Source: a virus. From it: DNA of 64,000 nucleotides. The stretch covers positions 32,001-96,000 of IMG/VR virus record IMGVR_UViG_3300032257_000479; one strand, written 5' to 3'. Shown one piece after another: positions 16,215-55,715 of this stretch. A model generated the notes under the pieces. It saw nothing but the letters and a program-made list of their open reading frames with translations. It was not told where the DNA came from and did no database searches. A program made the position numbers and the translations under genes. The stretch's first letter is position 1, and every line of letters starts with the position of its first letter.

Positions 16215-16224
16215 GTATTATCCC

Positions 16225-16437: not shown

Positions 16438-16449
16438 TATTGTTCTCCT

Positions 16450-19977: not shown

Positions 19978-19979
19978 TA

Positions 19980-23657: not shown

Positions 23658-23663
23658 AAATAC

Positions 23664-23671
23664 TTATCGCC
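23664..23671 (-). promoter_or_regulatory. Late-promoter-like motif GGCGATAA; its C lies 12 nt before the ATG (possibly leaderless)
   Basis: One of 12 intergenic NNCGAWWW copies. No SD between the motif and the ATG at 23657. Confidence 0.55.
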
Positions 23672-23680
23672 AATTGGGTA

Positions 23681-33970: not shown

Positions 33971-34008
33971 TTATCTGTTCCTCAAATTTGCATTATGTCT
34001 ATATTATG

Positions 34009-34036
34009 AATTCGACTTCTATTAGCCTTCTTCCTT
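34009..34036 (-). promoter_or_regulatory. Promoter-like motif AAGG-N18-CGAATT
   Basis: Upstream of the connector gene; same motif family. Confidence 0.4.
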
Positions 34037-35077: not shown

Positions 35078-35090
35078 TGTTCCCTTCTAT

Positions 35091-35681
35091 TCATAGCATG
35101 TCTTCAAGTTCGCTAATATTATCGTCTGCATCAGAAGAACCTAACTCTTCATTGTGACTAATATTGGACTCTGTATCCTTAACTATTCTGTTTATTGATC
35201 TTTCATGTATATCGACAGCTTTTTCGTCTTCAATTTCATATTCCGCTGTATTATTTTGTTTTTGTGAAATATTACCTGAAGCAATATCCTGCAAAGATTC
35301 AATAGCATTTTTTAGCATGTTAGCGTTTTCTTCATTAATACCGCCCGACGAAGAGACCTGCTTTTCAACCTGGTTATCCAATCTGGCACCAAGTCTTTTT
35401 TCCATATCCCTGAGAGCTTTCATTACATCATCGGATTGATCTAAAGTTTTTACAGGTTTTGCTTTTTGTGCTATTGGTTGCGTTTCATTGTTTCCCAAAG
35501 GATTATCTTTTCTAACAAGACGCAAAGCTCCACGCTTTAAAGCTATTCTAAGATCTCTGGATTGTTCAACAACATACCTCGCTGCAAAATGATCTAAGTC
35601 AGCTTGCTTTGATGGTTTTATCGTAGCTCTCAGGTCCCCAAGAGCTATCTCATGACGAGTCATGTTTTGAACTATATACAA
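35091..35681 (-). CDS. Putative adaptor protein: small N-terminal domain shared with GT 54315..55715, a helical segment and an acidic tail
   Basis: TTG start directly after the upstream TAA. N-terminus VQNMTRHEIALGDL...SRDLRIALKRGALRLV. Confidence 0.65.
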   Translation of the reverse strand: MYIVQNMTRHEIALGDLRATIKPSKQADLDHFAARYVVEQSRDLRIALKRGALRLVRKDNPLGNNETQPIAQKAKPVKTLDQSDDVMKALRDMEKRLGARLDNQVEKQVSSSGGINEENANMLKNAIESLQDIASGNISQKQNNTAEYEIEDEKAVDIHERSINRIVKDTESNISHNEELGSSDADDNISELEDML

Positions 35682-35885
35682 TTATCTTCTCCGATTTCTT
35701 GGTCTATTAAGAGTTGTAGACTTCGGTAGTCTTTGCTGTATTTCGCCATCTTTAGATATATCTATCTTATTCTCTTTTTTGCACTCTGGACATATCCAAT
35801 ACATTTTATTGTCCGCGAAATTAATCTCAACGACAGGTTCATGTTCGTGGTGCCTGCAAAACTTGCATACGCATACTATTTTCAA
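35682..35885 (-). CDS. Small zinc-ribbon protein with a basic tail
   Basis: CKFC...CPEC; C-terminal RPRNRRR. Confidence 0.7.
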   Translation of the reverse strand: MKIVCVCKFCRHHEHEPVVEINFADNKMYWICPECKKENKIDISKDGEIQQRLPKSTTLNRPRNRRR

Positions 35886-38308
35886 AGCGTCCCCAATCCA
35901 TTGATCATGTCATTCCTTATGGATGTTTTTATTTCATCTAACTTATTGGTTGATGAGAATTTTGACATCGCAGACGATAGTTTTGTTAGATCAAACATTC
36001 TGCCAATAGCTGTTCTTATTATGCTCAACTGTCTGTTGAAGCTTGCTCTATGAATATCATCTAAATCAAGAAGCTGCTTGTAGTAATCCTGAGCAACACC
36101 TGAAACGTTGCTTCTTCTTTTAATCTCTTGCTCAATAATACTGTTCGCTATCTGTCTTAGCTGACTATCTTCCATTTGCGTTATTTGTTGCGATGAAAAT
36201 CCTTGAGGAAGTGGTAATCCCATTTCATTTATAAAGTCAGAAGATAAATCCATCACCTTGCTACTATCTAAAGATTGTATTGAATCTACTGGCACTCCAA
36301 TATCAATTTTTTTTGATTTATCTTTTAACAATTTTCTTCTTGCCTTATCTCCAGATGGGCCAGGATCCGTAATTGTTTCATATTCTTTCATTTTCCCAAA
36401 AACCAACTCTTGCCTTGTTCTTTTTCCAGTTTCGCTATTTTCTGAAAGCAACGCACCAACTTCTTTGACATTCTTGTGTGTTGTAATCAAATCTAAATAT
36501 GAAAATAAAACATTTTTAGGATATTTTTTAACAACTTCATCTGAAACAAGATACTCGCCTATCTGTGTTAACATTTGATTCATTTGATCATGAAGAGTTT
36601 TACTTTTCTTCAATTTTGCAACCATCTCCTGTTTGTATTCAGGATCATTGGCCATTCTCTCTCTATCTATTTTATTTGATCCAAGCTGGCTCACTTGCTG
36701 TAAGTCATGCAAATAAGAGTCAGGTTGAGCATTCGGATCGCTTGAAATCATGTTATCAATCCATATATTCAACTTTTCATCCAAAGGAAGCATTTTGGAA
36801 AAATCGATAGAATCCCAAGTATTACCCTCGGAAGGTTTCATTATAACTCTTCCATTCTCTACCTTAAATGTTGCCTTCCCTTTTCTTTCTAAGTCTTTTA
36901 ATTTCTTAGGATCTGAAAATGCATCAGAGCCAACAAGCGAATCTATTATTTTTGCGGCTTGGTCAGGCCAAAACTCTGAAGCTATTGTTTTTGAAAACCA
37001 CTTTCCGCCTGGGGCAAAATTGGGATTCTTTTCAGAAAGCTCATTAACTATATGTTCTCTAACATCTTTCCCTAGAAATTTCAATGTTTGACCCATGGAC
37101 TGAAGATCGCCTTTGTATGCATCCATAATTGTAGATCTTTGATCTTGAGACAATTCAGGTTCATTGCCTTGCAATTGCTCCCTTCTAAGATCTACGCCAT
37201 GATCAACTTGAGTTCCCTCGCTATTTGCTGCGTATTGTTGAGATTCGTAACCTGTGCCCATCACATCTGAGCCGATCTTACTCATTACCCAGTCCCAAAC
37301 TTTTGCTTTTACTTCTTCGTTGTCGTCACCAAGAATGCCATAAAGAGTTCCTGTAACGGAATCAATATCTTGGGCAAGATTCATGTATGTTTCTTTGTTG
37401 TTCCCAAAAGACCCTGAAGTCATCAAAGAGGAAACCGATTCGGGCAGCATGCCAATAGAAGAAAGCCATGAAGCATTTTCTATAAAAAACTTTATTCTAA
37501 AATCTTCTTTATTTCCGCCTGAAGAACTGTAACCGCCCTCAACGCCCCTGAATACTCTGCTTTTCAGTATACTATCAATATCGCTGTCAGGAAATTTCAT
37601 CTGAATCTCTTTCCATCTTTTAATGGATGAACTCTCTTCTTCCTGAAAATCTTGATCGCCCATATCTGGCTCTAATAAATAATTCTCCATAAATGCTTGA
37701 GTTAAATCCTCAGCAGATATACCTCCAACATTTTGCTCATCTTCTTGCCAATGCTCTTCACCAAAACTCTCTTGTTCTCCAACGATTTGATCATACAGTG
37801 CCTGATTTCTTTGATTCTCTGTTATTTCCAACGGCAAACCTTGTTCACCTTGATTTAAAACAATTTGCTCTATATCTCGCCTTGATAAGTCAGGAAAATG
37901 ATTTGACAATTCCTGAGGTGAAGCAGCATTCCCTGGAATTGAATTTCTTGCATTCTCTATAGATTCATAAAACATATCTTCATTTAATTCACTCATCCAG
38001 TAATCTAAGCCATCATTTGATAACATTAACTCCAAATCCGTGAAACTTTGGGATTCAGGAAGTCTTCTTAATAGCCAATTTTCCATATCTGCTCGAAGAT
38101 TTGCTCGTTCAGCATTTTCTTTTGCTCTTTGCCCTTGACTTCCATTGTATACTGGAGTCTGTATTGGAACTGGAGCCTGTGTTGGAACTGGGGAAGCAGG
38201 AAAGGTTACTGGAGCAGGATCTGCCAATGGTTTAACAACTGTTGGCTGAAGCTGCTGAGAAGTCCTACTTATTCCAATTCTTTTTAGTATTCTAATATAA
38301 AATGACAT
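35882..38308 (-). CDS. Large hypothetical protein, possibly an internal head protein
   Basis: 808 aa, with a Pro/Thr-rich segment after a short basic/aromatic leader and an acidic helical body. Confidence 0.55.
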   Translation of the reverse strand: MSFYIRILKRIGISRTSQQLQPTVVKPLADPAPVTFPASPVPTQAPVPIQTPVYNGSQGQRAKENAERANLRADMENWLLRRLPESQSFTDLELMLSNDGLDYWMSELNEDMFYESIENARNSIPGNAASPQELSNHFPDLSRRDIEQIVLNQGEQGLPLEITENQRNQALYDQIVGEQESFGEEHWQEDEQNVGGISAEDLTQAFMENYLLEPDMGDQDFQEEESSSIKRWKEIQMKFPDSDIDSILKSRVFRGVEGGYSSSGGNKEDFRIKFFIENASWLSSIGMLPESVSSLMTSGSFGNNKETYMNLAQDIDSVTGTLYGILGDDNEEVKAKVWDWVMSKIGSDVMGTGYESQQYAANSEGTQVDHGVDLRREQLQGNEPELSQDQRSTIMDAYKGDLQSMGQTLKFLGKDVREHIVNELSEKNPNFAPGGKWFSKTIASEFWPDQAAKIIDSLVGSDAFSDPKKLKDLERKGKATFKVENGRVIMKPSEGNTWDSIDFSKMLPLDEKLNIWIDNMISSDPNAQPDSYLHDLQQVSQLGSNKIDRERMANDPEYKQEMVAKLKKSKTLHDQMNQMLTQIGEYLVSDEVVKKYPKNVLFSYLDLITTHKNVKEVGALLSENSETGKRTRQELVFGKMKEYETITDPGPSGDKARRKLLKDKSKKIDIGVPVDSIQSLDSSKVMDLSSDFINEMGLPLPQGFSSQQITQMEDSQLRQIANSIIEQEIKRRSNVSGVAQDYYKQLLDLDDIHRASFNRQLSIIRTAIGRMFDLTKLSSAMSKFSSTNKLDEIKTSIRNDMINGLGTL

Positions 38309-38353
38309 ATTTACCTCTGCTTTATGAAAAATGACATCATGTTCAGAATATAT

Positions 38354-38427
38354 TTTTCGATAATTTCAATGAATAATCCTTGAATAATATCTATTCTATC
38401 AAGCAATGATTATAAATAGTTATCGGC
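38354..38427 (-). promoter_or_regulatory. Two promoter-like motifs: GCCGATAA (38420-38427) and AAGG-N18-CGAAAA (38354-38381)
   Basis: GCCGATAA is an exact sigma28 -10 consensus. Both lie in the intergenic gap before 35882..38308. Confidence 0.5.
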
Positions 38428-38429
38428 AA

Positions 38430-39326
38430 TTACACTGATTCTTCGTCGCAATCGCAATCTTCTTCGTCGCAATCGCAATATTCCCAATCCCCAGATTCTT
38501 CCATTATATCATCAAATTCGCCTGCCTCAAGCAATGAATCATGCGTTGATTTGGTATCTTCGACATCGTTCTGGTCATCTTCAATGTAATCGTCATCTTC
38601 CTCGTCTCGATAAGCTTCATCAATAACTGTTACAATCTCTTCTCTCACGCACCATTCGTGACCTAGATCAACCATCCCAACTGCGGGTATGTGAGACAGC
38701 CTTTTTATTGCATCCTTTAAACCGTTATATCTTTCTCTTCTTAAACCAAGATCGCTTTGCTCAACATCTCCTGTCATTATTATTTTGGAGCCAGAACCAA
38801 GACGTGTTAGCAATAGGTGTATCTGCTTCTTTGTCATGTTTTGGCATTCATCAGCAATAACGCAAGAGTTCTTAAAAGTAACACCTCTCATGTAAGCAAT
38901 TGGTAAAACTATAATAGTTTTATCTTCTATTCTTTTCCTTAAATCATCTGGACTTAAATATTGAAGAATTATTTCATTCATTGGGAACATGTAAGGAGCA
39001 AGCTTCTGTTCTGCATCGCCTGGCAAAAAACCTAAAGACTCTCCAGCCTCAACAACAGGTCTAGTGAGAATAATTTTATCAAATCTACCGTTAACAAGCT
39101 CTTGCAAAGCCCAACCTACAGCCAAGTGTGTTTTCCCCGTACCAGGAACACCCTGAATAACAGTTACTTGTTTTTGAGAAATAGTTCTTAACGCATCTTT
39201 TTGTCCTGCGTTCATTGCTGAAACTGTAACAACTCGCTTAGATGATGATTTTTCTTTTCCCATAGTATTTTTGTTAACCTTTTTCTTTTTGGTATTATGA
39301 TTTTTGGTATTATGCTTTTTTCTCAT
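38430..39326 (-). CDS. phoH: PhoH-family ATPase
   Basis: GVPGTGKT, IILTRP, LGFLPGD, YMRGVTF, DECQN, LLTRLG and GDVEQSD motifs. Confidence 0.95.
   Translation of the reverse strand: MRKKHNTKNHNTKKKKVNKNTMGKEKSSSKRVVTVSAMNAGQKDALRTISQKQVTVIQGVPGTGKTHLAVGWALQELVNGRFDKIILTRPVVEAGESLGFLPGDAEQKLAPYMFPMNEIILQYLSPDDLRKRIEDKTIIVLPIAYMRGVTFKNSCVIADECQNMTKKQIHLLLTRLGSGSKIIMTGDVEQSDLGLRRERYNGLKDAIKRLSHIPAVGMVDLGHEWCVREEIVTVIDEAYRDEEDDDYIEDDQNDVEDTKSTHDSLLEAGEFDDIMEESGDWEYCDCDEEDCDCDEESV
38439..38480. repeat. 21-bp tandem duplication in the PhoH C-terminus
   Basis: ttcttcgtcgcaatcgcaat[c/a] x2, encoding YCDCDEE-DCDCDEE. Confidence 0.9.
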
Positions 39327-39739
39327 TTATGCTTTTCCCTGGATGAAACAAGTAAATAATGTTCATCTCCTGATGGTTCAATCTTTATTCCTTCCAATAC
39401 ATTCCATTTATCTTTTAGAGAATAACTTGAAAATATGTCAGTTATATATTTCCAAAATGATTTCCTAACTTTTTTTGTTTCACCAGATAATATCCTTATT
39501 CTTAATAAAATAAGGTCTTCCCCAAAATCTTCTTTTATTACATCAACGAGTGAATCTATCTCATTTCTAATAAATAGATCTTCCCATCCTTCAGCGCTTC
39601 TGGCTTTTATTAATCTTTTGCGTTCTTGGTTGGGTATGCTATCCATTAATTTAGATCTTTGCAATGATGAGAGAGGTCGTGTTAAAAAATAAAACTCTTG
39701 AAAATTCTTAAAAACTCTTCTACTCATAAACGCCTCCAT
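39323..39739 (-). CDS. Hypothetical protein
   Basis: 138 aa. The start is probably MSRR, after a GGAGG RBS. ATGA overlap with phoH. Confidence 0.65.
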   Translation of the reverse strand: MEAFMSRRVFKNFQEFYFLTRPLSSLQRSKLMDSIPNQERKRLIKARSAEGWEDLFIRNEIDSLVDVIKEDFGEDLILLRIRILSGETKKVRKSFWKYITDIFSSYSLKDKWNVLEGIKIEPSGDEHYLLVSSREKHK

Positions 39740-39809
39740 AGATATCTAGTAATACAAAAATCAAAATAACATATCCTTGTTTATGAAATTGTTATTTAAG
39801 ATTTTTTAT

Positions 39810-40115
39810 CTACTTCTGAGACGAGGTCGGCGATGGAACAACGATAACCTCTCCAAGACTGAAAACATATTCATGATTTTCATCTAAGTTTCCGGAAACC
39901 ATCTTCATTATAAGATTTTTATCTAATATAATTCCTTGGCCAGAGGATATTTGCAGCATAGTTACAACCAATTTGCTCGCAAGCTTGCTTAGCCTTGGAT
40001 CATTACCTTTTGCTATGCGTCTTTTCAATTCCGCTGAAGGTAAAAAGACGAATTCGACATTAGGGTCTTCTATCGCATTACGAAGTTTGTTCTTTTGTTC
40101 TTGTGTTAAACTCAT
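39810..40115 (-). CDS. Hypothetical protein (possibly leaderless)
   Basis: 101 aa. A GACGATAT motif lies upstream with its C 12 nt before the ATG; no SD. Confidence 0.6.
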   Translation of the reverse strand: MSLTQEQKNKLRNAIEDPNVEFVFLPSAELKRRIAKGNDPRLSKLASKLVVTMLQISSGQGIILDKNLIMKMVSGNLDENHEYVFSLGEVIVVPSPTSSQK

Positions 40116-40121
40116 ATATTT

Positions 40122-40129
40122 ATATCGTC
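40122..40129 (-). promoter_or_regulatory. Late-promoter-like motif GACGATAT
   Basis: Same 12-nt spacing to the ATG as the 23664 copy. Confidence 0.5.
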
Positions 40130-40161
40130 ATGATAATTCTTAAAAAAACACATCACAACTA

Positions 40162-40680
40162 TTAGTTTAACTTTATGGTTGTCTTATCTTCGTTCTTTGA
40201 GCTAAAAATTAATTCTTCAACCAAAAACTTTTTGCCCAAAAATCTTTCATCGCCAACCATCTCTGAGCACTTGCCTTTTTTCACATAAGCAAGAGTTAAA
40301 TGAGCCTTATATCCAGCGTGTGTAGATGTATACGGCAAGTTTCTCAATTCCCCATTTGCGCTTACAAGCTCTTTCCCCTCTACTTCCACCTTCAAAACAT
40401 CATGCTCATCGCTTGATGTAAATTTACTTATTTTTCCAAGGGAAATTGAGAACGGATTTATTTTATCGATTATATCTCTTACATCATCAGCATTTTCTGT
40501 ATGCAATCCATACAGCACTGTTACATGTATATCATCTTCTTTCCCGCCTTCAGCCACATCAATGTCATCAATGGAAGATATTGTATTTTGGATATCTTTT
40601 TTGAGTTCACCTTTTATTCTAAGCATAACTGTTGAATAACTATGAGTCTCTGATTCTTTTATTGTTCTATACCAATTCAT
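40162..40680 (-). CDS. 2H phosphoesterase, Acb1 (anti-CBASS)-like / 2'-5' RNA ligase superfamily
   Basis: Two HxT motifs: IHVTVLYG and YKAHLTLAY. Confidence 0.85.
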   Translation of the reverse strand: MNWYRTIKESETHSYSTVMLRIKGELKKDIQNTISSIDDIDVAEGGKEDDIHVTVLYGLHTENADDVRDIIDKINPFSISLGKISKFTSSDEHDVLKVEVEGKELVSANGELRNLPYTSTHAGYKAHLTLAYVKKGKCSEMVGDERFLGKKFLVEELIFSSKNEDKTTIKLN

Positions 40681-41072
40681 GACACACTTTCCGCAAAGAG
40701 CTTTGCAAACTCTTTTGCTTGATCTAAGTCTTTTGCTTTTTCTTTGCTTATTGATTTACCAAAAGGACACGATTCTTGTGCCATATCGCCTATGCCGAAT
40801 CCATGTATAGCCCTATGACTCCAACCATACCATTTATCATCCTTTTTATCGAAAGCCACAGTAGCAACATTGCAATCTTTAGGAGACCAAAAAGATTCTG
40901 GATCAAAATCATGACCTTCGCACAATTTCATTGCAGATTCAGGTGTTCCTAAATATAAGCCATTCAAAGTCTCCGCTATATCATACTCTATTTCACTACC
41001 AAAATCACTGTTAGTTTCTTTTCTAACAATAAATGGCCTATTTTCTTTTTTTAAAGCTTCTTTAAACCACAC
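40677..41072 (-). CDS. Conserved phage protein of unknown function
   Basis: KWYGWSHRAIHGFGIG and C-terminal FAESVS, a motif set I recall from large phages. Confidence 0.6.
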   Translation of the reverse strand: MWFKEALKKENRPFIVRKETNSDFGSEIEYDIAETLNGLYLGTPESAMKLCEGHDFDPESFWSPKDCNVATVAFDKKDDKWYGWSHRAIHGFGIGDMAQESCPFGKSISKEKAKDLDQAKEFAKLFAESVS

Positions 41073-41074
41073 AA

Positions 41075-42088
41075 TTAACTTCCTGACCCGTTTTTAAATA
41101 AGTGCCTGAACCATCTAGATCGACCACCCGGCAATGTATATTCAGGAGTAACAACGGCTTTCGTTAAACCAACATATGATCCAAACTTTTTCTGTTCAAG
41201 AAGAGCCCTAAAGTCTTCTTCGAAATTTTTCTTAAGAGTTTCAAGTTGAGCGAACGCATTTTTAGCATTTTCTGGCCCACCGAATACTTCTTGAGGCTCT
41301 TGGAATTGAAGACACATAAGCAAGTGCCTTATTGCGTCCCTTGCTGCTCCGTAAAGAGTGTGAGGAATATACATATCTGGAACAGAGTATAAATTATGAC
41401 CGCTAACAGGGGGATAGTTGTTTACAGTACTTACTGCATTCTGCAAAAATCTATCAAGTTCTGCATCATCAAACCACCTAAAGTTATAATCCATATTAAC
41501 TGTATCATAATCAGTTAAAAGGTTTTCAAAAATAACTTTTCCTTTAAAGTAGTTTATTGTAGCCCCCTCTGTTACAGGTTTTCCGTTTAAGTACAAACGA
41601 GTCATCATATTCTGATTCCATCTTGGAAAATTAAAACTCACAGTCTGATTGTCTGCTTCTATTATCCCCTGTTCATCGTAAACTGGTATAGCTTGAGCAC
41701 ATGACAAGTGAACTGTTAATGCCATTCTTATAGCTGAAAGACGATCCGAATATAATGAATTTGTTAACGTTCCACTTCTAGCCGCAACTATTACTTGTTG
41801 AACTTCAGTGTATGTTACGCTATCTATAACATATGACCATGTCACAGTATATGTTCCTGCGCTTTGATCTAAAGCAACCTGCCAGTCATGTATATAAAAT
41901 CCATTAACAACCTTTTCTGGTATTCCGGAAAAAATTGATTCATCTAATTCATCTATTATATCTATTGTTATGGTTTCAGGATCGGTTGCCTGTCCCTCAA
42001 ATGTCGTAAGTCGCAAAAACAAAGTGGATGTTTGGTTTTGCTCAAACGTTCCTCTGTAATCTGCAATTGATTGAATCGGGTTAGCCAT
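41075..42088 (-). CDS. Head-tail adaptor/neck protein with N-terminal Ig-like domains
   Basis: WFDDAELDRFLQNAVSTVNNYPP...YGAARDAIRHL adaptor-like core; GTYTVTWSY Ig-like strand. Confidence 0.6.
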   Translation of the reverse strand: MANPIQSIADYRGTFEQNQTSTLFLRLTTFEGQATDPETITIDIIDELDESIFSGIPEKVVNGFYIHDWQVALDQSAGTYTVTWSYVIDSVTYTEVQQVIVAARSGTLTNSLYSDRLSAIRMALTVHLSCAQAIPVYDEQGIIEADNQTVSFNFPRWNQNMMTRLYLNGKPVTEGATINYFKGKVIFENLLTDYDTVNMDYNFRWFDDAELDRFLQNAVSTVNNYPPVSGHNLYSVPDMYIPHTLYGAARDAIRHLLMCLQFQEPQEVFGGPENAKNAFAQLETLKKNFEEDFRALLEQKKFGSYVGLTKAVVTPEYTLPGGRSRWFRHLFKNGSGS

Positions 42089-42089
42089 G

Positions 42090-42743
42090 CTATGTTATCC
42101 TTATATTGCTTGTTCCGCCAGAGCTTCCTCTTGGGCCAATTACTGGCGATGATGTATTGGGTAATTCTGTTTGATTGGTTGATAAGCCATTTATTAAAGA
42201 GATTATTTGATCAACCTTACTATCAGTTAGTTCCAGTTGGTCTTGAAGCTCAGACAATCCTTCTACATTATTTTCTATCGTAATATATGGATCTGGACAC
42301 TCAAGATCAATATCAAGATCCGTCAATGTTCTTTCTGCATTTTCCCAAACATCTTGAGCTGTAAGAGTTGTTCCTGCAACTGATTGACATCCACAAATAT
42401 CAACTTCTTGCTCACCGTCCCAATAAAACGCCATAGTACCAACCAGTGTGTCTGATTCTCTATCTGGTCCGCTACCAAGCAATCTAAAGACTTCTATGAG
42501 ATAAAAGTCTCCATTTGAGGTTTCAGGTATTGACGATAAATCCGTTATACTGTAACTATAATACCCTTTTCTTACACTATTTTCGCTTAATATTATCTGA
42601 AAATCCGACTGAGAAGAAAGGCTAATTGTGTCAAATAATCCAGATGTTGGATTAAATGCTTTAATTTTATTTGTTGCGCTAAATAAGTTTGCATAAATAT
42701 TCAGACCCGTATTGTCATTAAAACTTATTTCTAGCATAAACAC
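42090..42743 (-). CDS. Hypothetical virion protein
   Basis: 217 aa, with AQDVWENAERTLT followed by a coiled-coil-like segment. Confidence 0.55.
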   Translation of the reverse strand: MFMLEISFNDNTGLNIYANLFSATNKIKAFNPTSGLFDTISLSSQSDFQIILSENSVRKGYYSYSITDLSSIPETSNGDFYLIEVFRLLGSGPDRESDTLVGTMAFYWDGEQEVDICGCQSVAGTTLTAQDVWENAERTLTDLDIDLECPDPYITIENNVEGLSELQDQLELTDSKVDQIISLINGLSTNQTELPNTSSPVIGPRGSSGGTSNIRIT

Positions 42744-42784
42744 TTATTCCTTATGTTATGGCAAAAAACCTTGTAAATATTAAT

Positions 42785-42916
42785 CTATTCCGGGATAGGA
42801 CTCGGAGTTGGACCAGGAGTTGGGCTCGGAGTTGGAGTTGGAGTTGGAGTTGGAGTTGGAGTTGGAGTTGGGGTTGGAGCCGGAGACGAAATTATTTTTG
42901 TTGACCACCACGGCAT
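42785..42916 (-). CDS. Unannotated 43-aa Pro/Thr-repeat peptide
   Basis: The ATG overlaps the upstream TAA (TAATG). Reads MPWWSTKIISSPA(PT)8PSPTPGPTPSPIPE*. Pro codons vary synonymously outside the pure repeat. Confidence 0.7.
   Translation of the reverse strand: MPWWSTKIISSPAPTPTPTPTPTPTPTPTPSPTPGPTPSPIPE
42830..42877. repeat. Hexanucleotide tandem repeat (agttgg)7 plus one variant unit
   Basis: Seen directly. Encodes (Pro-Thr)8 on the - strand. Confidence 0.95.
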
Positions 42917-43287
42917 TATGTTAAAGTTCCTAAAATTGTTATTTGCAATTCCAATGCAGAAGAATTGCTTGTAACAATAAGTGTCAATGATTCTCCTCCA
43001 GCCCAGGTATCAGCCCCAGTTGATGCAGTATTAGCTTCAGTTGAAGTAACAGATAGGGCAGACCAGCTAGTTACGCTTGTTCCATCTATCTCAACATTCA
43101 AGGTGCAAGTTCCTGATAGTGTCTTATAGTAAATAGTATCCAATGAGCCAGCTAAAGGCATATAAAGTTCCACTCTATATGTTTTATTTTCCGCCTCCTC
43201 TATCAGGTAGCTTAACTTAACTGAATTAAGTTTATCTTGTATGCCTGGTGGCAATCCGCCTAAATTTGCTGCTGTTGAATTTGCCAT
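42916..43287 (-). CDS. Small fibre-associated beta-sandwich protein
   Basis: 123 aa; resembles the C-terminal domain type of 44359..46671. Confidence 0.55.
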   Translation of the reverse strand: MANSTAANLGGLPPGIQDKLNSVKLSYLIEEAENKTYRVELYMPLAGSLDTIYYKTLSGTCTLNVEIDGTSVTSWSALSVTSTEANTASTGADTWAGGESLTLIVTSNSSALELQITILGTLT

Positions 43288-43297
43288 AACTGTTTAT

Positions 43298-44356: not shown

Positions 44357-44358
44357 TA

Positions 44359-46671: not shown

Positions 46672-46672
46672 A

Positions 46673-49291
46673 TTATCCTATAATTATTGCTTTGTAAGTC
46701 ACTGATGGCGGTTTTGAAAAATTGACTGTTACAGTATTGGAATCAGTTATAACAATCTCTGCTTCTACTTGAACATCTGATGGATTATATATTGCGACAA
46801 CCACATCTGATGTACCCATACTGTGATCTATATCGAAAGTTAACAATGCTCCATTTCCAGCTATTGATGTTGTATCAATGAATTTTCTAGCAACCCTTAA
46901 TGCTATATCTGAATTATCGACAAACCATTCGTTAGCAGTTTCATTGAAGTAAATAAACGCATTTGCTGTTACGCCTCTTTCTACCTCAATACCAGCATCT
47001 ACATCTACACCTGTCGAATTTACAACGATAAAATTATCTTCAACAATAAGATTTTCTGTATTGATTGTTGTTGTAGTCCCTTCTATTAAAAGATCGCCTG
47101 TGACAGTAAAGTTTCCGGTAACAGTGCTCAATGGAGTTCCACCAGAACCGTCAAACGAGGCTATCTGTGAACCGTTTGCTGAAATTCCAACAATGCTTGT
47201 TGCCGCTAAGTACATACCGTTATCTGAATCTGTCGAAAAACTATACGTTGGAGCCGCTGCTGTTCCTGGCCCTGTTCTTAATGGAACATTGGTAACAAGA
47301 TCTGTTGATGATAATGTCATTCTCGTAGAAGCGCTTGCAGGCGTTCCTGTTGGAGCTACTCCAAATTTTAAAGAAGTTCCAGCTCCGCCTGCGCTCCAAG
47401 CTTCATTCGATTCTGCTACGACAAAAGCGCCCTCAGCGGTTGCGCCTGCTGTTGTATGGCCATAGAAGCTAATTGTGCCCAGTTCATCTCCACTAGAAAG
47501 AGGTATTTTTGAAGCCTCCGTACCACGAGATCTTATGAATCTTATATCATTGCTAACTGCTGACGAATTATAATAATGTTCCAGCAAAATAAATTTTTGA
47601 GTATTGCCATCGTTAACAAGATTGAATAGAGCATCAGATGCTCCTGCCCTATCTTTTCCTGAAACAAAACTTGACGTTATGCTAGATAAAACAATATCCC
47701 CATTAGCAAGTTTTATGTCTGTTCCGTCAAACGTGAAATCAGCATCGCTTGTCAAAGTGTCTGAATCGCTCCATGTTGCTACTCTGTTCGTTGCACCTGA
47801 TCCATCGATTCCGCCTGAAGCATCTATAGTTAAAGTTCCAGCTCCGTCATCATAAGTGAGGGTAATATTAGTTCCTTGTGTAAGAAGGGAGTCAACTCTA
47901 TCATCAACTCTTTCGTCTGTGTAATAAAGGTTTGAGCCCTCAGTTAAATCTCCGGTATCAAAACTTGAAAGAGAAACATTTCCTGTTAAAGTGTTTGAGC
48001 CATCAACATAAGTCCAAGTAAGACCTGTTCCATCCTGTATAAGGGCCGACACTCTGTCATCAACTCTTTCGTCTGTAAAATAGAGATTAACTCCCTCAGG
48101 TATGGTTGTTGTTGATATAGTTGCCCAACTTGGATCAGAACCGTCGGATAATATAAATTGACCAACAGAGCCAACAGCAAGGCGAACGGCATTCCCAGAT
48201 GCGTCTTGAACTAATAAGTCTCCCCTTGTTGTTAGGCCAGAAAGATTATCCAATGCCGCTTGTTGCGTTGAAGCTCCTGTTCCGCCATCAGCGATAGCTA
48301 TGTCAGTTCCATTCCAAACACCTGTAGTTATTGTTCCCACAGTTGTTATTTCAGCTTGAAAATTTGCAAATGTCGTCTTTTTATTAGTAGCTATTGCTGT
48401 TATATCCCAGAATGGAACAAAGTCCCCATCGGCTATTGTTGCAACAACGAGAGAATTAATGTCTAAAGACATATCAGTTAAACCAACTGCCAACCCATTA
48501 CCGGCTCCAATATTTATTGTGCTACCTGAAGAGGAAAGACCTACTCCTGCTGTATCAAAATAAGTGCCCAGATCAGTTATGTCAGATTCAACGAGCGGTC
48601 TTTCTTCAAAGCCTTCGCCATCTCTTACTAAAACATCTCCATTATTATCAGTAATAGTGCTAATGATTGGAATATCGCCATCAACATCATTTAAAGTTAC
48701 TATACCCCCAGCAGTTCTTTGTGAAGCAAAAGTATGTCTTCCGCCAATACCTGTTATGGACAAATCATCAAACTGATTAGCCGCTGACCAAAGCTGCGGA
48801 GCATCTAATAATCCTACATTACTAGACAATCTGTCATCATTTATTGTTCCGCTTGTTATATCTTCGCCTGCATGAACATGACTCCCAGAAGCAACAGGTA
48901 TCCAGGCATCAACTGATCCACCAACATATTGAAGTATTTCCCCGTCCGCAGGAGGATCTGACATATCAATAGCATATCCATCTATTTGATTCGCATTAAC
49001 AATCCCTAATCCTGAAAAAGTAAGAGAACCTCCAGAACCAACAGTTAAAGTTTCGGTAGTGTTTGTTGATGTTGTTACACCGGAAAAAGCAACATTAGAT
49101 GCTGCTGCAGAAGACATTGATATCCAAGATGATCCATTATAGAAAAATGGCGTATTAGATCCTGTGTCATAATAAAATTGCCCAGCAACCTCTGTTGCAA
49201 CGCTTGGAGCTGCCCCAAGATTATGAAACACACCAAATTGTATTTCATTCTGGTTTAAATCTATATCTACAAAAAAATCTCTATTTGCCAT
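46673..49291 (-). CDS. Fibre protein
   Basis: NLY[FY]TDERVDDRV x2; IAIADGGTGAS; GTTTTINTENLIVEDNFI; C-terminal HSMGTSDVVVAIY domain. Confidence 0.75.
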   Translation of the reverse strand: MANRDFFVDIDLNQNEIQFGVFHNLGAAPSVATEVAGQFYYDTGSNTPFFYNGSSWISMSSAAASNVAFSGVTTSTNTTETLTVGSGGSLTFSGLGIVNANQIDGYAIDMSDPPADGEILQYVGGSVDAWIPVASGSHVHAGEDITSGTINDDRLSSNVGLLDAPQLWSAANQFDDLSITGIGGRHTFASQRTAGGIVTLNDVDGDIPIISTITDNNGDVLVRDGEGFEERPLVESDITDLGTYFDTAGVGLSSSGSTINIGAGNGLAVGLTDMSLDINSLVVATIADGDFVPFWDITAIATNKKTTFANFQAEITTVGTITTGVWNGTDIAIADGGTGASTQQAALDNLSGLTTRGDLLVQDASGNAVRLAVGSVGQFILSDGSDPSWATISTTTIPEGVNLYFTDERVDDRVSALIQDGTGLTWTYVDGSNTLTGNVSLSSFDTGDLTEGSNLYYTDERVDDRVDSLLTQGTNITLTYDDGAGTLTIDASGGIDGSGATNRVATWSDSDTLTSDADFTFDGTDIKLANGDIVLSSITSSFVSGKDRAGASDALFNLVNDGNTQKFILLEHYYNSSAVSNDIRFIRSRGTEASKIPLSSGDELGTISFYGHTTAGATAEGAFVVAESNEAWSAGGAGTSLKFGVAPTGTPASASTRMTLSSTDLVTNVPLRTGPGTAAAPTYSFSTDSDNGMYLAATSIVGISANGSQIASFDGSGGTPLSTVTGNFTVTGDLLIEGTTTTINTENLIVEDNFIVVNSTGVDVDAGIEVERGVTANAFIYFNETANEWFVDNSDIALRVARKFIDTTSIAGNGALLTFDIDHSMGTSDVVVAIYNPSDVQVEAEIVITDSNTVTVNFSKPPSVTYKAIIIG

Positions 49292-49313
49292 GACTGTTAC
49301 CTCTGCATATTAT

Positions 49314-50270
49314 TTATGTACAATATACTTTTCCTGTTATTGCTGAATTTGATCTAATAAACAATTGGTTTATTGTCGTATGCTCTACCTCTACCATTAT
49401 TTCTGTATCTGTTGAATCTGTTACCATGACAGAAGGGAAACGGCCCAAATTGTGATCTATCTGCCAATCTGTTGAAGCTATTCCTTGAGCATGTTCATAT
49501 CCGGAATTTAAAATTTTCCAGTTTGCTGAATCTGAAGTAAAATCAGAGGCATGAGAAGTATGGCTTGAAGTGCAAACATATATCCCGTTCATAAATGACA
49601 CATCTCCATATGACGAATCCTTATCAATAAAAACCAAATCAGAAACCGTGTAATTTGTACTTACCTGCCATTCTACTATACCTCCAACTTGTCTTGCTGT
49701 TACATTATGCGGGTTTGACTCATTCGATATGTGATCCTGAATAGTGTCGCCTATATACAAATAAACATACATAGTCCCTGTTGATCCAAGATTGAGATCA
49801 TCCTCAGATGTCACAACGGAAGCAAATGGATCGAAAAACCAGTCCGATGAATCTGTTGCAAATATTTCGCTTGAGTTATCAAATAATCTTGGGCTATATC
49901 CACCTAAATTGTTCAATAAAACCCCTGAGCTATTGAAGAAAAATGGCACAACAAAAGTTGTGTCTCCAACTGGAGTGCTCGCAACTCCGCCTCCAAAAAA
50001 ACCTGAATAACCAGCCGGAAAGTAGCCTCTATAAGATTTTCCATTAGAAGTAGCATCTAAAACAAGATCAATTTCCAATACCTCAACTATGCCATCGGAA
50101 ACAGCGGTTGCGGGAGCTGAATTTATTTCTTGTCCAATTATTTGATTCGCGGAAATAGAAATCTGAGAGGCTACGCTTTCATTTGCAGGCTGCTTTGTGT
50201 TGCCTGAATGAATTTTTCCAAACAGTTTTTTGAGGGCGATGAATCGTTCAGATTGTGATGTTAAAGCCAT
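49314..50270 (-). CDS. Virion protein with a CBM5/12-like carbohydrate-binding motif
   Basis: WQVSTNYTVSDLV...YVCTSSHTS; HISNESNPHNVT; C-terminal HNLGRFPSVMVTD. Confidence 0.6.
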   Translation of the reverse strand: MALTSQSERFIALKKLFGKIHSGNTKQPANESVASQISISANQIIGQEINSAPATAVSDGIVEVLEIDLVLDATSNGKSYRGYFPAGYSGFFGGGVASTPVGDTTFVVPFFFNSSGVLLNNLGGYSPRLFDNSSEIFATDSSDWFFDPFASVVTSEDDLNLGSTGTMYVYLYIGDTIQDHISNESNPHNVTARQVGGIVEWQVSTNYTVSDLVFIDKDSSYGDVSFMNGIYVCTSSHTSHASDFTSDSANWKILNSGYEHAQGIASTDWQIDHNLGRFPSVMVTDSTDTEIMVEVEHTTINQLFIRSNSAITGKVYCT

Positions 50271-52034
50271 TTATACAACCGCCCATTCAATACTAATTTC
50301 GGTTAACTCTCCAGTAAATGTATCAGGAGCGGTTATTCTGTAATAAACCTTATCAAATGACAATGAAGTATTTCTTGTTCCAACTGACAATCCCCAGTTT
50401 GTTGTATTTATTGTTTGATCAGACCCGAAGCTTGCTGCATAACACCCATCCCCATCGCTAAAATCTCCCTCAACAAAAGCCTGCGTTATATCAAGCCAGC
50501 CAGTTCCGCTAACATCTCCTTCTGGCAATTTTATTGATATTTTTATCTGAGCCGCTGTAGTAAAGCCTGTTGCCTCAGGTATAACTTGGACACCTGAACC
50601 TTGCAGTGTTAATCTAAAATTAGCTGAGCCTGTTCCGTCTGTAAACAGTCCGTAATAGAATCTATCTCCGCTAGCTGATGAGTAATCTGGATTACCAGCA
50701 GGAGCATCTGATATGGTAGAGAAATTCAATGAAGGATAACTAAGCCCGCCATTTATTGTTTGTAACCCATCGTCATATCCAGAAGTCGCAGATACAAGCG
50801 AAATGGTTTCGTCCCAAGTTGAGGATAGGTCTGTATCAAAATCATCATTGCTCAACAGTCTTCCTAATTCATCGTTAAAGTCGTTTGACAAATCAGTTCC
50901 GGTTGATGATTGAGAATCCACTAATAATTCAAAAGCCTCAGTATATGAACTTGTAATTGTTGCCAATAATGGTCTAGTGGCTCTCACTCTTGCCCTAAAT
51001 CCATCATATGTTGATATCCCTGCTATTATTCTGGTTGCGTTTAATAATACCGATTGAGATATAATTTCGCTATTAGTATAACCGCTAGCTCCTGGATCTG
51101 GATATGAAACAGAAGAAACCGTACATTGAGATGGATCTGGATATGAAATTGCATTTCCATCAGAATATGTTTTTCTGTATGCATTACCTATAGAGCAATT
51201 CATAGTAGCAGTAGCTCCTGTATTATACTCTATTCCTGACAAACTTTTACTTCCAGTTGTAACAAGTCCTTTCATTTGCACTGACAATATGGTTGTGGCT
51301 GTTGAGTCGTCATCTACTATGTAATAAAAAGAATTTGTAGCAACGGTCCCAGTTGTTGTGTGGGTTAGATTTATTTCATTGTATCCAAGAGCTAAATCGG
51401 ATGAATCAATATTCCAAGTTCCTGTTCGGTATTGCCTGCTCGAAAAAGGAGAGCCACTAGGAAAATCAACGGGAGTTGAAGCTGATAAATTGAATCCTGA
51501 ACCGTTTCCGTTTTGAGAAACACCGCTACCAAAAGATGAAAGATCAACAGAGTGCTTTGCTACAGAATTAACTAAAACAGTCAAAGTCCCCTCGTCTCCT
51601 GGTCCAAAAGCGTTTTCTGGATATGAATTAGAAGCATCCGCCACAACACTTTCGTTTATGGTTCCAGAAATATCTGTTGAATCATCAATAACTCCCTTAT
51701 TAGGAGACGATGTGTTAAAAAGGTCTCCAACATCCAATGTTGGGTGTTCTATGTATCCTGCAGGATTAGATGAAGCTGTTGGACCAAATGAAAGTCTGGC
51801 CGATACGCCTGTAATCGCTGTTGTTATGTCGCCAAGATCAGGAGCGGCTGCTGGAAGCAATTCATTTAATATGCCTTCCGTTGTATCTGTTCTTTCAGCA
51901 AGCTCGTCTAAGGCATCATCAACGTTGCCTGGATCAACATCTCCATCCCAATCTGTATTGTCAATAGGGGTATATGTGACATCAGCCGCATCGCCTGTTC
52001 CTGTATTAGATATTCTTTTTGGTACATTTGGCAT
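50271..52034 (-). CDS. Ser/Thr/Gly-rich virion (fibre/decoration) protein
   Basis: 587 aa; AADVTY...NVDDALDELA fibre-type N-terminal motif. Confidence 0.6.
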   Translation of the reverse strand: MPNVPKRISNTGTGDAADVTYTPIDNTDWDGDVDPGNVDDALDELAERTDTTEGILNELLPAAAPDLGDITTAITGVSARLSFGPTASSNPAGYIEHPTLDVGDLFNTSSPNKGVIDDSTDISGTINESVVADASNSYPENAFGPGDEGTLTVLVNSVAKHSVDLSSFGSGVSQNGNGSGFNLSASTPVDFPSGSPFSSRQYRTGTWNIDSSDLALGYNEINLTHTTTGTVATNSFYYIVDDDSTATTILSVQMKGLVTTGSKSLSGIEYNTGATATMNCSIGNAYRKTYSDGNAISYPDPSQCTVSSVSYPDPGASGYTNSEIISQSVLLNATRIIAGISTYDGFRARVRATRPLLATITSSYTEAFELLVDSQSSTGTDLSNDFNDELGRLLSNDDFDTDLSSTWDETISLVSATSGYDDGLQTINGGLSYPSLNFSTISDAPAGNPDYSSASGDRFYYGLFTDGTGSANFRLTLQGSGVQVIPEATGFTTAAQIKISIKLPEGDVSGTGWLDITQAFVEGDFSDGDGCYAASFGSDQTINTTNWGLSVGTRNTSLSFDKVYYRITAPDTFTGELTEISIEWAVV

Positions 52035-52086
52035 ATAACTAGATTCCTTACTTCTATTTTCAACAAAAAATAAGATTATACCTCGT

Positions 52087-52902
52087 TTAGTTTTTGGTAG
52101 ATTCCATTAGTTTTTTGTATACATCAACTGGTTTAATGGTATTCCCTGCAATCCTTTCTTGTTGAATAATGCAAGCCGCGGCTCCTGCTACAACTGGGGC
52201 AGCAACGCTTGATCCGCCCATTTTTATGAATTTATCATTTAAATATGTTGTATATATGCTATCTAGTGGCATATCAATACTTGGTGCCTCTATTTTTCCT
52301 GTTTGTATTTTTTTGTTATCGCACAACCCAACAGACATAACTTCTTTTAATCTAGCGGGGAAATTTGCGTCTCTAGTATGGCTCTTATTGTTTCCAGCGG
52401 CAGCAAACATGCAAATCCCATTATTATAAGCCTTTTTTATTGCATCATGCAAAAACGGATGCATCGAATCACACCCAAATGACATTACAATAATATCTAC
52501 GTTTTGAACAATAGCATAAAGAATGGATGCTTGAACAGCTCCGTGTTCTCCTGATCCATTATCTCCTATAGCCTTAGCGTGCCATAAGGAAGATTTTGGG
52601 GCTATTCCAATAACATTTCCTTTTGCCTGAGAGTTTATTATCCCTGAAACACCAGTTGAATGACCATGCTTGTCAAGAACTGATGAATTGGTAAAATCAA
52701 TTGACCTTTTAGTTATTGATGGCAAATACTTATTGCTGGGCAAACCTGTATCTATGATACAAACATTGACCCCAAAGCCATTACCTTTTATTTTTTTGAA
52801 ACCAAAATATTCAGGAGAATATATTATTGAATTCTTAACAGAATCAATAGCATGTCTTGAGTTTGGTTTTTTACATTTATAATTTTTCTTGTTCATACTC
52901 AA
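52087..52902 (-). CDS. Subtilisin-like (S8) serine peptidase
   Basis: Catalytic Asp IIDTG, His HGHSTGVSGII, oxyanion AAAGN, Ser GGSSVAAP. No signal peptide. Confidence 0.9.
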   Translation of the reverse strand: MSMNKKNYKCKKPNSRHAIDSVKNSIIYSPEYFGFKKIKGNGFGVNVCIIDTGLPSNKYLPSITKRSIDFTNSSVLDKHGHSTGVSGIINSQAKGNVIGIAPKSSLWHAKAIGDNGSGEHGAVQASILYAIVQNVDIIVMSFGCDSMHPFLHDAIKKAYNNGICMFAAAGNNKSHTRDANFPARLKEVMSVGLCDNKKIQTGKIEAPSIDMPLDSIYTTYLNDKFIKMGGSSVAAPVVAGAAACIIQQERIAGNTIKPVDVYKKLMESTKN

Positions 52903-53629
52903 ACTTTATATGGTTCCCATTTCCAAAAAATTCTATCCCCATATTAAGTCTTTTGTCATCAAGAAATTCCACATGCTTCCTCATAGCTATTGCAGCATGA
53001 GCGGAAAACAAATCATTGGTAACAATTCTTTTGCATCTATTTATTTCATCTATACGTTTTAGTAAATCTTGCTTCATGGGAACATGCCACAATTCAGATT
53101 GATTAAGTTGTAAATTGCTTTTTACATATTTCCTTAACTTACTGTCGCTGATAGCAATGCCTGTTTTACCTTTTTTCATTTTATTTTTGGGGTAATAGGC
53201 CAGATCGTACCCCTCTCCCCTCCACTTAAGTCCAGCGATGCGAAAAATTATCTGTAAAATATGACGATCAGATGGCAGACCTTTATATAATACATCAAAG
53301 CCTTCTTTGGCATCATTATTTAGGTAACTAACATTACCTTCCACTTCGCCGAATCCAAGCTTAATTTTAGATTCAATATTATTCATTGTTAAACAAGCTT
53401 CTCTTGTTGGACTTAAATTTATAGCTATATCGTATTGATTATAAAACTGACCATATCCAACTAACACATCTCTTATCCTTGAATTATATTGAAGTAAAGG
53501 GTAACTACTTGATGTTGTTGCCCAATCTATAGAAGCTTTATCATATTTTTTATTGATAGCCTTTATCATACTTGTTGATACTAAAGTGGTCCAAGGCTCA
53601 CCATATTGCAATATAACTATTTTTGTCAT
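52877..53629 (-). CDS. GT9 (heptosyltransferase-like) GT-B protein, shortened and divergent
   Basis: TSMIKAINKKYDKASIDW, YDIAINL and IVTNDLFSAHAAIAMRK. The canonical N-terminal GD motif is absent. Confidence 0.7.
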   Translation of the reverse strand: MTKIVILQYGEPWTTLVSTSMIKAINKKYDKASIDWATTSSSYPLLQYNSRIRDVLVGYGQFYNQYDIAINLSPTREACLTMNNIESKIKLGFGEVEGNVSYLNNDAKEGFDVLYKGLPSDRHILQIIFRIAGLKWRGEGYDLAYYPKNKMKKGKTGIAISDSKLRKYVKSNLQLNQSELWHVPMKQDLLKRIDEINRCKRIVTNDLFSAHAAIAMRKHVEFLDDKRLNMGIEFFGNGNHIKFEYEQEKL

Positions 53630-54330
53630 TATTCTTCCATATCCGATATATCTATTCCTGCATCTCTTGCGGTCTGAAAGAACTCTTCGTCTTGCGGAGA
53701 TGTTCTTCCTCTCATAACTTCATCCGTTATATCAAGAGGTTCATAATCGCCATCTTCGGTATCGTATCCTTCTGATTCAATTCTTTCTGATAACTTATTT
53801 GCTGATTCAGAAACTAAAATTGAATTCAAGTTCTTGTCTTCTAATGATTGTTTTTTCTTATTTCTAATATTAGAAACTTTCCTATACTCTTTCTTTATTC
53901 TATCGATATCTCCTTCGTCAACTATTTCTAGTTTTCCTATTTCTATGTATCGATCCAGATCCGGATAAGTGATTGCAAGGTTATCGCTATACAATTTGAA
54001 ATCTATTGGACTATCAAATATAAGAGCTTTCTCTTCTTCATTTTGATGTTTAACGATTATTCTGCCAGCCTTAATTTCTCTTATAAACTTTCTACCAGTT
54101 TTAATAACTTTTTTGTACTTTTTGCCTGTGTTTTTTGAAATCAAATCAATAATATCAGAACCATTTTTAATATCAAGGGATGTTATATATAAGACCTCTC
54201 TGGATGATATCTCATTTGCAATATCATCTATGCTATCCCATTCATATTCTCTAACTTCATTTTTGTCAATTATTCGCACAACCCTATTTGCCGCATCAAT
54301 AAAGACAATTTTCATTACAGCGTTTTCCAT
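53629..54330 (-). CDS. Hypothetical protein in the GT operon
   Basis: 233 aa. Internal YPDLDRYIEIGKLEIV resembles the end of the shared small domain. Confidence 0.6.
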   Translation of the reverse strand: MENAVMKIVFIDAANRVVRIIDKNEVREYEWDSIDDIANEISSREVLYITSLDIKNGSDIIDLISKNTGKKYKKVIKTGRKFIREIKAGRIIVKHQNEEEKALIFDSPIDFKLYSDNLAITYPDLDRYIEIGKLEIVDEGDIDRIKKEYRKVSNIRNKKKQSLEDKNLNSILVSESANKLSERIESEGYDTEDGDYEPLDITDEVMRGRTSPQDEEFFQTARDAGIDISDMEE

Positions 54331-55715
54331 ATTTCTTTTATCCTTTCTGATGCTCTATCTGACACTGAGCTAAATGAGTAATTATCCAAAATATGTTTTT
54401 GAAGAATCTTATTGCTTAATTTAGCATCGTCATGATTGTTATAAACATTTCTCATTGATGATCCAAACCTATCTATAAAATCTTTGCTCTTTAATATTGG
54501 CATGATCTGATTGTCCCAATAATGAACCTGAGAACTCCCTGGAGAAACCTTTGCAAGTTTATCAATGTCAACAAGATTGCTGTTTTCTTTTGTTAAAAAC
54601 ATTGTATGGCCGCTATGATTTGTTGCTATAACAGGAAGACCTACTAGCGATGCTTCACAATAAGGTAATCCAAAACCCTCGCCTCTTGAAGGAAGAACAA
54701 ATGCGTCTGCTGCTTTATAGATTCTTGGCAATTCATGTTCTGGTATCACTCGACTGCATCTAGCAATATGGGCAGGATTTTCTCCGCCGTATTTTTTTAT
54801 AAACTTCTCTATTTCTGATCGAATTATATCGGACCTTCGAGAAGATTGTTGATACCTGCTAACTATCAACAATGAAACATTATCATCTCCTGAAAACTCA
54901 GTTAAGTATGATTTTAATAATGCATCATATCCTTTCCTATATCCCCATCCAAATACGCTTATAAATACAAAATCTTTTAATTTAGGTCTAAACTCATGCG
55001 GTTCATGGTTTTCATGATATATGTTCGTTTGTATGCTTGCTGGCATGATAAATATTGGTCTTGTTACACCAAATTGTTCCAAAACGTCTCTACAGTAGTC
55101 TGAAGTAACCCAAAGCTCATCATATGAATTGCAAATATCAACTGTTTGTTGAGGAACTGATGAGGCCTCAACTGTTGTGTAAAGTATTCGATAAGGCATA
55201 CGAGGGCTCATTTGCCCAAAACTGGGTATAATGCTATCTATTCGTATTGCTTTTCTTCCAACTCTCTTTTTTAAAGAATTCAACATACTAGCTTCTATTT
55301 CATTTAAATCGCTGCGCATATTATTCGTTGGAGAAACTTCTACTTTTATTCCCTTCTTTGTTAGACCAAACGCTAAATTTCTATTAACTTTTGCATATCC
55401 TCCAGCTTCGTAAAAATGTCCTTTTACGACAACTTCCGGTTCCTGTCCGCTAGGCATTCGTGGCACCTCTTCCTCTTTTTTATCATTTAAGCCTTTTGAA
55501 TCTCTTTCGCTTCTCATTTTGACTAAATTGTTTTCTATTCTACTTGATCCTATTTCAACAATATCAAATGCTCCAAAAACTAAAAACTTTTGAAAGCTTT
55601 TACTTTTTAATATATCATCCACGCAAATATCTTCAACAAGACCCTCTTCATGAGAAATGTTGCGATCAATATCTTCTAGGTAAACTGAATTTTGAGTCAT
55701 ATTTTTGAATTTCAT
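54315..55715 (-). CDS. Glycosyltransferase (GT4-like) with an extra N-terminal domain
   Basis: GGYAKVN, YRKGYDALL, SRGEGFGLPYCEA. Paralog of 11583..12680. Confidence 0.92.
   Translation of the reverse strand: MKFKNMTQNSVYLEDIDRNISHEEGLVEDICVDDILKSKSFQKFLVFGAFDIVEIGSSRIENNLVKMRSERDSKGLNDKKEEEVPRMPSGQEPEVVVKGHFYEAGGYAKVNRNLAFGLTKKGIKVEVSPTNNMRSDLNEIEASMLNSLKKRVGRKAIRIDSIIPSFGQMSPRMPYRILYTTVEASSVPQQTVDICNSYDELWVTSDYCRDVLEQFGVTRPIFIMPASIQTNIYHENHEPHEFRPKLKDFVFISVFGWGYRKGYDALLKSYLTEFSGDDNVSLLIVSRYQQSSRRSDIIRSEIEKFIKKYGGENPAHIARCSRVIPEHELPRIYKAADAFVLPSRGEGFGLPYCEASLVGLPVIATNHSGHTMFLTKENSNLVDIDKLAKVSPGSSQVHYWDNQIMPILKSKDFIDRFGSSMRNVYNNHDDAKLSNKILQKHILDNYSFSSVSDRASERIKEIWKTL

Follow-up and report, generated by a model that had tools for sequence, protein, structure and literature searches.

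Profile comparisons point to an evolutionary link between the partner of a phage actin and a capsid-adjacent glycosyltransferase

What does a phage actin move or organise, and does the protein encoded beside it carry a clue? The question is raised by a 64,000-nucleotide stretch of viral DNA (positions 32,001 to 96,000 of IMG/VR record IMGVR_UViG_3300032257_000479; hereafter the window) that encodes a volactin-family actin-like ATPase with a small partner protein, P0001, and, elsewhere, a glycosyltransferase (GT), P0002, near the major capsid gene. The first-pass annotation, made from the sequence without database searches, had noticed that P0001 and P0002 begin alike and had proposed that the ~55 residues concerned, with a weaker copy in the neighboring protein P0003, form a portable tag that docks different enzymes on one target, most plausibly the capsid surface. 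The three open reading frames (ORFs) and the peptides quoted from them proved correct. We found that the N-terminal modules of P0001 and P0002 are very probably homologous, as judged from their sequence profiles, and that they belong to two sharply diverged subtypes. The features concerned are listed below; every gene treated here (actin, P0001, P0002, P0003, capsid and others) sits on the minus strand.

35091 to 35681, minus strand: P0001, the actin partner, 196 residues
35502 to 35681, minus strand: module copy 1 (basic), P0001 residues 1–60, near-invariant among close homologs, net charge +5
35091 to 35501, minus strand: remainder of P0001 (linker, helical segments, C-terminal peptide and stop), net charge −14
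54315 to 55715, minus strand: P0002, GT4 glycosyltransferase, 466 residues
55545 to 55715, minus strand: module copy 2 (acidic), P0002 residues 1–57, kept in 18 aligned GT orthologs and in 11 loci found by pattern, net charge −5
55431 to 55544, minus strand: short conserved helix (SRIEKNL) and variable charged linker, P0002 residues 58–95, from the alignment
54315 to 55430, minus strand: GT-B/GT4 catalytic region, P0002 residues 96–466 and stop (Pfam Glyco_trans_1_4 and Glycos_transf_1; phrog_2170)
53629 to 54330, minus strand: P0003, 233 residues, the next gene after the GT
53905 to 54093, minus strand: probable module copy 3 (acidic, internal), P0003 residues 80–142, by profile comparison

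The record that holds the window is a single viral record of 169.5 kb with 37.7% G+C. Its completeness is ~25% by CheckV, and it probably represents a quarter to a third of a genome. Its close relatives are three complete phage genomes of 488–499 kb, two of them with terminal repeats.

Taken as a pair, the two N-termini are only marginally alike. BLASTP does not report the match between them, Smith-Waterman alignment of the first 60 residues yields a score of 31 over 17 residues only (p ~0.018 against 2000 shuffles), and the modules are ~20% identical. Profiles from shallow alignments gave an hhalign E of 0.17, and neither shallow family hidden Markov model (HMM) finds the other family among the 1539 ORFs of the genome. 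Larger families were therefore compared, with partner relatives gathered by running the P0001 head as a profile in an exhaustive search of 1.84 billion representatives, which returned 88 clusters, and GT orthologs gathered from the protein database, viral contigs and whole records of more distant relatives. Alignment of 97 partner modules with 14 GT modules gave P 1.1e-4 over 50 columns. Once the GT set had been brought to 18 by adding five divergent copies and removing one truncated copy, hhalign returned a probability of 94.2%, P 1.2e-7 and a score of 37.3, with an alignment of 55 columns (4–60 to 3–57) that contains one 2-residue gap.

Because hhalign statistics can mislead on short, narrow profiles, empirical nulls were built. 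Column shuffling of the GT profile (300 shuffles) gave a mean score of 9.65 (standard deviation 2.35) and a maximum of 22.1, against 37.3 for the real pair, and the reversed profile scored 8.3. For the second null, proteins of the same phages were clustered into 34 real families, N-termini included. Among these, the other module comes out on top for each module profile (28.7 and 28.3), followed by the P0003 family (23.6 and 22.3), while the rest reach at most 17.6. MAFFT, too, aligned a mixed set of 36 modules in register; Asn6 is invariant among them, and M1, D16 and S41 are conserved in at least 90%. The likeness that the first-pass annotation had seen by eye is thus borne out, at the profile level only, and on these comparisons the actin and glycosyltransferase modules are evolutionarily linked.

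An N-x-S/T tripeptide occupies module positions 6–8 (window positions 35658–35666 and 55695–55703) in 88 of 92 full-length partner modules and 17 of 18 GT modules. It may form a structural turn, or could conceivably serve as an acceptor sequon, the operon being rich in glycosyltransferases.

The module does not correspond to a domain in current libraries. P0001 falls into no family of Pfam, NCBIfam or PHROGs, and 78 modules searched one by one against Pfam (E ≤ 1) returned scattered noise only. A search of 177,635 PDB sequences with the module profile gave a best E of 0.032, to designed TIM barrels. An S4-like RNA-binding domain was considered and rejected: PF01479 is absent from the Pfam scan of the 78 members, and S4 is absent from the PDB profile search. 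By these searches the ~57-residue module is a new domain family without described relatives, comprising ~90 partner-type clusters at 50% identity. From its conservation and hydrophobic periodicity, the module would be expected to form two or three short strands and two helices (DLDxV..R and SxDL..A), with a last strand at LxΦV.

The family falls into two diverged subtypes, a basic and an acidic one, each locked to its own architecture. The net charge of partner modules averages +3.6 (standard deviation 1.8, n = 97), compared with −5.3 for GT modules (standard deviation 2.3, n = 18), and aligned columns show reversals of charge (R to D/E, K to E, E to K). The 88 partner-type representatives are proteins of 170–252 residues with one architecture and the module at or near the N-terminus, the exceptions being two short sequences (76 and 87 residues) and three with longer N-terminal calls. 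Searches with GT-type module patterns alone led to 11 loci, all of which encode the same GT of 456–471 residues. Searched with a combined profile of both subtypes, the three complete genomes and the record that contains the window show exactly two carriers each. Listing the fusion partners therefore yielded only the volactin partner and one GT as confirmed carriers, and with a single architecture per subtype, two detectable carriers per complete genome and one enzyme between them, the picture of a portable tag on different enzymes does not hold. The proposed single target fares no better, since the opposite net charge and the reversals at aligned positions make binding to the same site unlikely.

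P0001 itself consists of a head and a tail, both conserved, with a linker between them. The consensus of the partner-family module is MYxVxNxT..IxLxDL..IxP....DLDxV..R..IExSxDL. It is followed by a variable Pro/Glu-rich linker (residues 61–80) and then by conserved helical segments, ending in an acidic C-terminal peptide (..NISELEDML) that is conserved through the 97-member family, amphipathic, and present in ..ELEDLL or ..LANEL.. variants. Translation starts at a TTG codon that lies 7 nucleotides after GGAG and abuts the stop codon of the preceding gene, which encodes a Zn-ribbon-like protein. The actin gene follows P0001 after a gap of 13 nucleotides in the same orientation, and a P0001 homolog lies directly upstream of actin in every one of the 17 related loci whose sequence includes the upstream flank. 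Even in a distant member (L033) the gene order is PhoH, a 72-residue gene, partner and Volactin, with the 72-residue gene in the same position as the 67-residue Zn-ribbon-like gene of the window. P0001 is thus adjacent to and co-oriented with its actin gene in the manner of a ParR/AlpA-type actin adaptor, and the arrangement is conserved in relatives.

More distant actins give a less clear picture. In LR745208.1, a 485-kb uncultured phage whose actin is 29% identical, a 209-residue ORF directly upstream of the actin gene (L048:3334-3960) contains ..HLRDLGIHM..AAEQSRDLKNAKIDGTVV..., which resembles a degenerate module at a sub-threshold E of 0.07–0.15 in a local unfiltered search. A six-frame module search of LR745208.1 and LR756511.1, both deposited genomes of huge phages whose actin is distant, gave no match.

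The second carrier, P0002, is a GT4 enzyme, with matches to PF13692 (54.1 bits, cut-off 27) and PF00534 (49.3 bits, cut-off 26.4) and to phrog_2170 over residues 105–461. The module precedes this catalytic region, separated from it by the SRIEKNL helix and a charged stretch that runs to residue ~85. A paralogous GT at 11583–12680 aligns with P0002 only from residue 101, at its own residue 9, and therefore lacks the N-terminal extension, as had been noted by eye; no module was found in it by a six-frame search of its own genome. The database gene call for P0002 (P0014, 461 residues) begins at Met6 (window positions 55698–55715) and so drops the invariant Asn5. We take the first ATG as the start because MKFxN is kept in all orthologs and Asn5 precedes Met6. 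In another locus the module-bearing GT ORF is 868 residues long (L026:4401-7055), a C-terminal excess of ~400 residues over the usual ~466 that may reflect a fusion or an assembly artefact.

The case for P0003 is less firm. Comparison of its family (16 sequences) with each module family gave P 0.005 and 0.008 over ~30 columns; deepening the family to those 16 sequences brought no better match to either single module profile, and six-frame profile searches do not detect the copy. Against the combined profile, residues 80–142 score 22.4 in local mode, a value that none of 150 shuffles reaches (maximum 20.2), and 18.5 in global mode over all 61 columns (shuffle mean 3.2, maximum 10.9). The segment has a net charge of −6. 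Because it was picked after an earlier match had been seen, these scores let us rate it as a probable third copy and nothing firmer; the weaker copy of the first-pass annotation thus stands as a somewhat better than even prospect, short of proof. A further candidate is found in a divergent fragment, where a 982-residue ORF upstream of the GT (L025:1178-4123) opens with a module-like stretch, WVLTNISLSELAFGEL..., that reaches E 0.4 with the partner profile, is lost with the combined profile and is unconfirmed.

The two confirmed carriers travel together. The extended GT is present in all five distant actin-bearing records, each of the three complete genomes has both carriers, and 13 records in all contain the pair. 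In the reverse direction the partner module was found in one of five GT-bearing records; this test is uninformative because the four negative records are fragments that are 7–26% complete. Since both subtypes are found throughout this lineage of ~0.5-Mb phages, the duplication is old. Of the proposed tie between the glycosylation and actin modules, then, the homology, the co-occurrence and the variable linker after both N-terminal copies hold up, and the general tag does not.

The remaining genes that define the setting are the following.

34022 to 35077, minus strand: volactin-family actin-like ATPase, 13 nucleotides downstream of P0001 (Pfam PF25216, E 1e-63, full length)
35682 to 35885, minus strand: 67-residue Zn-ribbon-like protein, coupled to P0001 (weak zinc-finger matches only)
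56681 to 57559, minus strand: major capsid protein (phrog_2522, E 3.7e-67)
52087 to 52902, minus strand: S8 subtilase, two genes downstream of P0003 (Pfam E 5e-29)
11583 to 12680, minus strand: paralogous GT4 without the module, used as negative control (BLASTP alignment described above)

P0002 lies two genes and P0003 three genes downstream of the capsid gene, within a block conserved across 8 loci that consists of the capsid gene, a 149-residue gene, the GT, P0003, a 250-residue gene, the S8 protease and a 587-residue gene. The actin operon, which adjoins head-tail joining genes (Mu Gp36-like), is part of the late structural region. S8 is not among the families of canonical prohead proteases; the subtilase, which keeps its syntenic place among the head genes, may be an unusual protease of head maturation. 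Elsewhere in the window, a hexamer array ((GGAGTT) x 12.7, 80% matches) occupies positions 42804–42879 between a 217-residue and a 123-residue gene, and four consecutive giant ORFs of paralog-like size (1173, 1175, 1225 and 1105 residues) span positions 12693–26998 beside a 2565-residue ORF and a GT.

What, then, could the modules do? The reading that we favor, tentatively and at somewhat less than even confidence, is an ancient duplication, within this phage lineage, of a protein-interaction docking head tethered by a linker. Each N-terminal copy would be an autonomous head on a flexible leash, anchoring one end of a protein whose other end is the effector. For P0001 the effector would be the conserved acidic C-terminal peptide, which would be expected to bind the actin filament as the adaptors of bacterial actins do, and for P0002 it would be the enzyme itself. 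The variable charged or Pro-rich linker after both N-terminal copies is as expected of a tethered head domain. Given their opposite charges, competition between the two heads for a single site is improbable; it is likelier that they recognise each other or distinct faces of a single late-assembly structure.

Several points weigh against the docking-head reading. A shared fold needs no shared function, and the opposite charges could equally mean that the copies now have unrelated jobs. No GT came up when the partner-family profile was run against 1.84 billion representatives, so the subtypes must be far diverged. AlphaFold2 models from early, shallow alignments are of low confidence (mean predicted local distance difference test, pLDDT, scores of 61 and 45), and because they are too poor to use, an autonomous fold is inferred solely from conservation and hydrophobic periodicity. 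Three options are left: heads that recognise different faces of one assembly, heads that pair with one another through basic and acidic surfaces, and heads that have diverged in function, for example with a DNA-binding head on the partner.

The last of these is the alternative that survives best, although we consider it rather unlikely. It denies any functional link: the basic partner module would bind DNA in the manner of ParR or AlpA, or would oligomerise, and the GT and P0003 copies would be old duplicates put to new use, for instance in GT oligomerisation. The basic charge of the partner module would suit such a role, as would the order of adaptor upstream of actin, which is that of AlpAC, whose adaptor binds DNA repeats (PMC4446434), and the subtypes are too diverged for HMM-to-sequence searches to connect them. 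The surroundings of the operon weigh against it. The operon lies among late structural genes, not in a replication or partition region, and no centromere-like or iteron array was found near it, just two-copy short repeats within coding sequence (33900–39500), a result that covers this stretch of a ~0.5-Mb genome and slightly disfavors a ParR-like role. Nor do the modules give a ribbon-helix-helix or helix-turn-helix signal, with one of 78 members matching RHH_1 (E 0.024).

A common address tag, as first proposed, would bring all three carriers (actin partner, GT and P0003) to one target, the surface of the capsid or procapsid, so that filaments handle capsids while the GT glycosylates them. 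Phage filaments do act on capsids elsewhere, for PhuZ tubulin filaments traffic them in nucleus-forming jumbo phages. The conserved position of the GT and P0003 close behind the major capsid gene, the head-tail joining genes beside the actin operon and the co-occurrence of all carriers are consistent with such a tag. We nonetheless judge it unlikely: opposite net charges and column reversals are hard to square with one binding site, and the carriers number two or three with a single enzyme among them.

The charge pattern that counts against a common site is what recommends direct pairing, in which the basic partner module would bind its acidic counterpart in the GT (and in P0003) and recruit the GT to the actin filament. 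The charges are complementary and reversed at aligned columns, paralogous interaction domains often pair, each genome carries exactly one copy of each type, and co-occurrence is strict where it can be tested. Such complementarity is circumstantial, however, and the ~13 pairs are phylogenetically linked and too few for covariation; there is also no obvious biological reason for placing a GT on a filament, and we regard pairing as improbable. A convergent or chance resemblance, due for example to compositional constraints on N-termini, might be suspected from the low pairwise identity, the failed BLASTP and HMM-to-sequence searches and the unusable structure predictions, but it is very hard to reconcile with a profile match that extends over 55 columns into the C-terminal half, with scores that none of 300 shuffles and none of 32 unrelated real families approach, and with family-wide invariant positions that coincide.

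If the heads did pair, or docked on the same procapsid, the actin cytoskeleton would have a physical connection to virion glycosylation or to head assembly, and its filaments would deliver or organise enzyme and capsids at the assembly site. We think this coupling unlikely. If real, it would parallel PhuZ-driven capsid trafficking with actin in place of tubulin and a new interaction domain dedicated to the task, and it would be of high interest; should the link prove purely evolutionary, the gain is a modest one in annotation. In either case the module is the first sequence-level thread found from a phage actin/partner pair to another defined function, here a capsid-adjacent GT. It defines a domain family missing from current libraries, and it turns the question of what a phage actin moves or organises into binary binding tests with three ~60-residue domains.

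Comparison with known systems sets out what is familiar in this locus and what is new. Huge phages build tubulin spindles, and in T4-like and phiKZ-like phages short N-terminal peptides on many internal head proteins serve as capsid-targeting sequences and are removed by the prohead protease. The module resembles these sequences in being, in P0001 and P0002, an N-terminal element on otherwise unrelated proteins encoded near head and protease genes. It differs in being a ~57-residue domain on two or three proteins, with one copy probably internal and no sign of cleavage. Capsid-adjacent glycosyltransferases glycosylate virions in mycobacteriophages, and P0002 is likewise a GT4-type enzyme encoded within a head gene block; we know of no described capsid-adjacent phage glycosyltransferase with an N-terminal domain common to a cytoskeletal adaptor. 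The neighboring actin, as distinct from the module, is unlike ParM or AlpC in belonging to the volactin family, whose model it matches end to end, and unlike Haloferax volcanii VolA (PF25216; PMC10869688) in being phage-encoded and paired with a partner protein.

The closest parallel is with bacterial actins and their adaptors. In AlpA/AlpC of the Corynebacterium glutamicum prophage CGP3, the adaptor gene lies upstream of the actin gene and the adaptor binds the filament directly (PMC4446434). As in AlpA/AlpC and ParR/ParM, the actin-like ATPase of the window stands next to a co-oriented small adaptor gene, in the same order as AlpAC. Unlike those systems, the operon has no repeat array nearby and sits among late head-tail genes, and P0001 has no sequence similarity to any described adaptor. 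Its layout of conserved head, linker and conserved C-terminal peptide is a further point of likeness; its head, unlike that of any described adaptor, has what is very probably a paralog on a glycosyltransferase.

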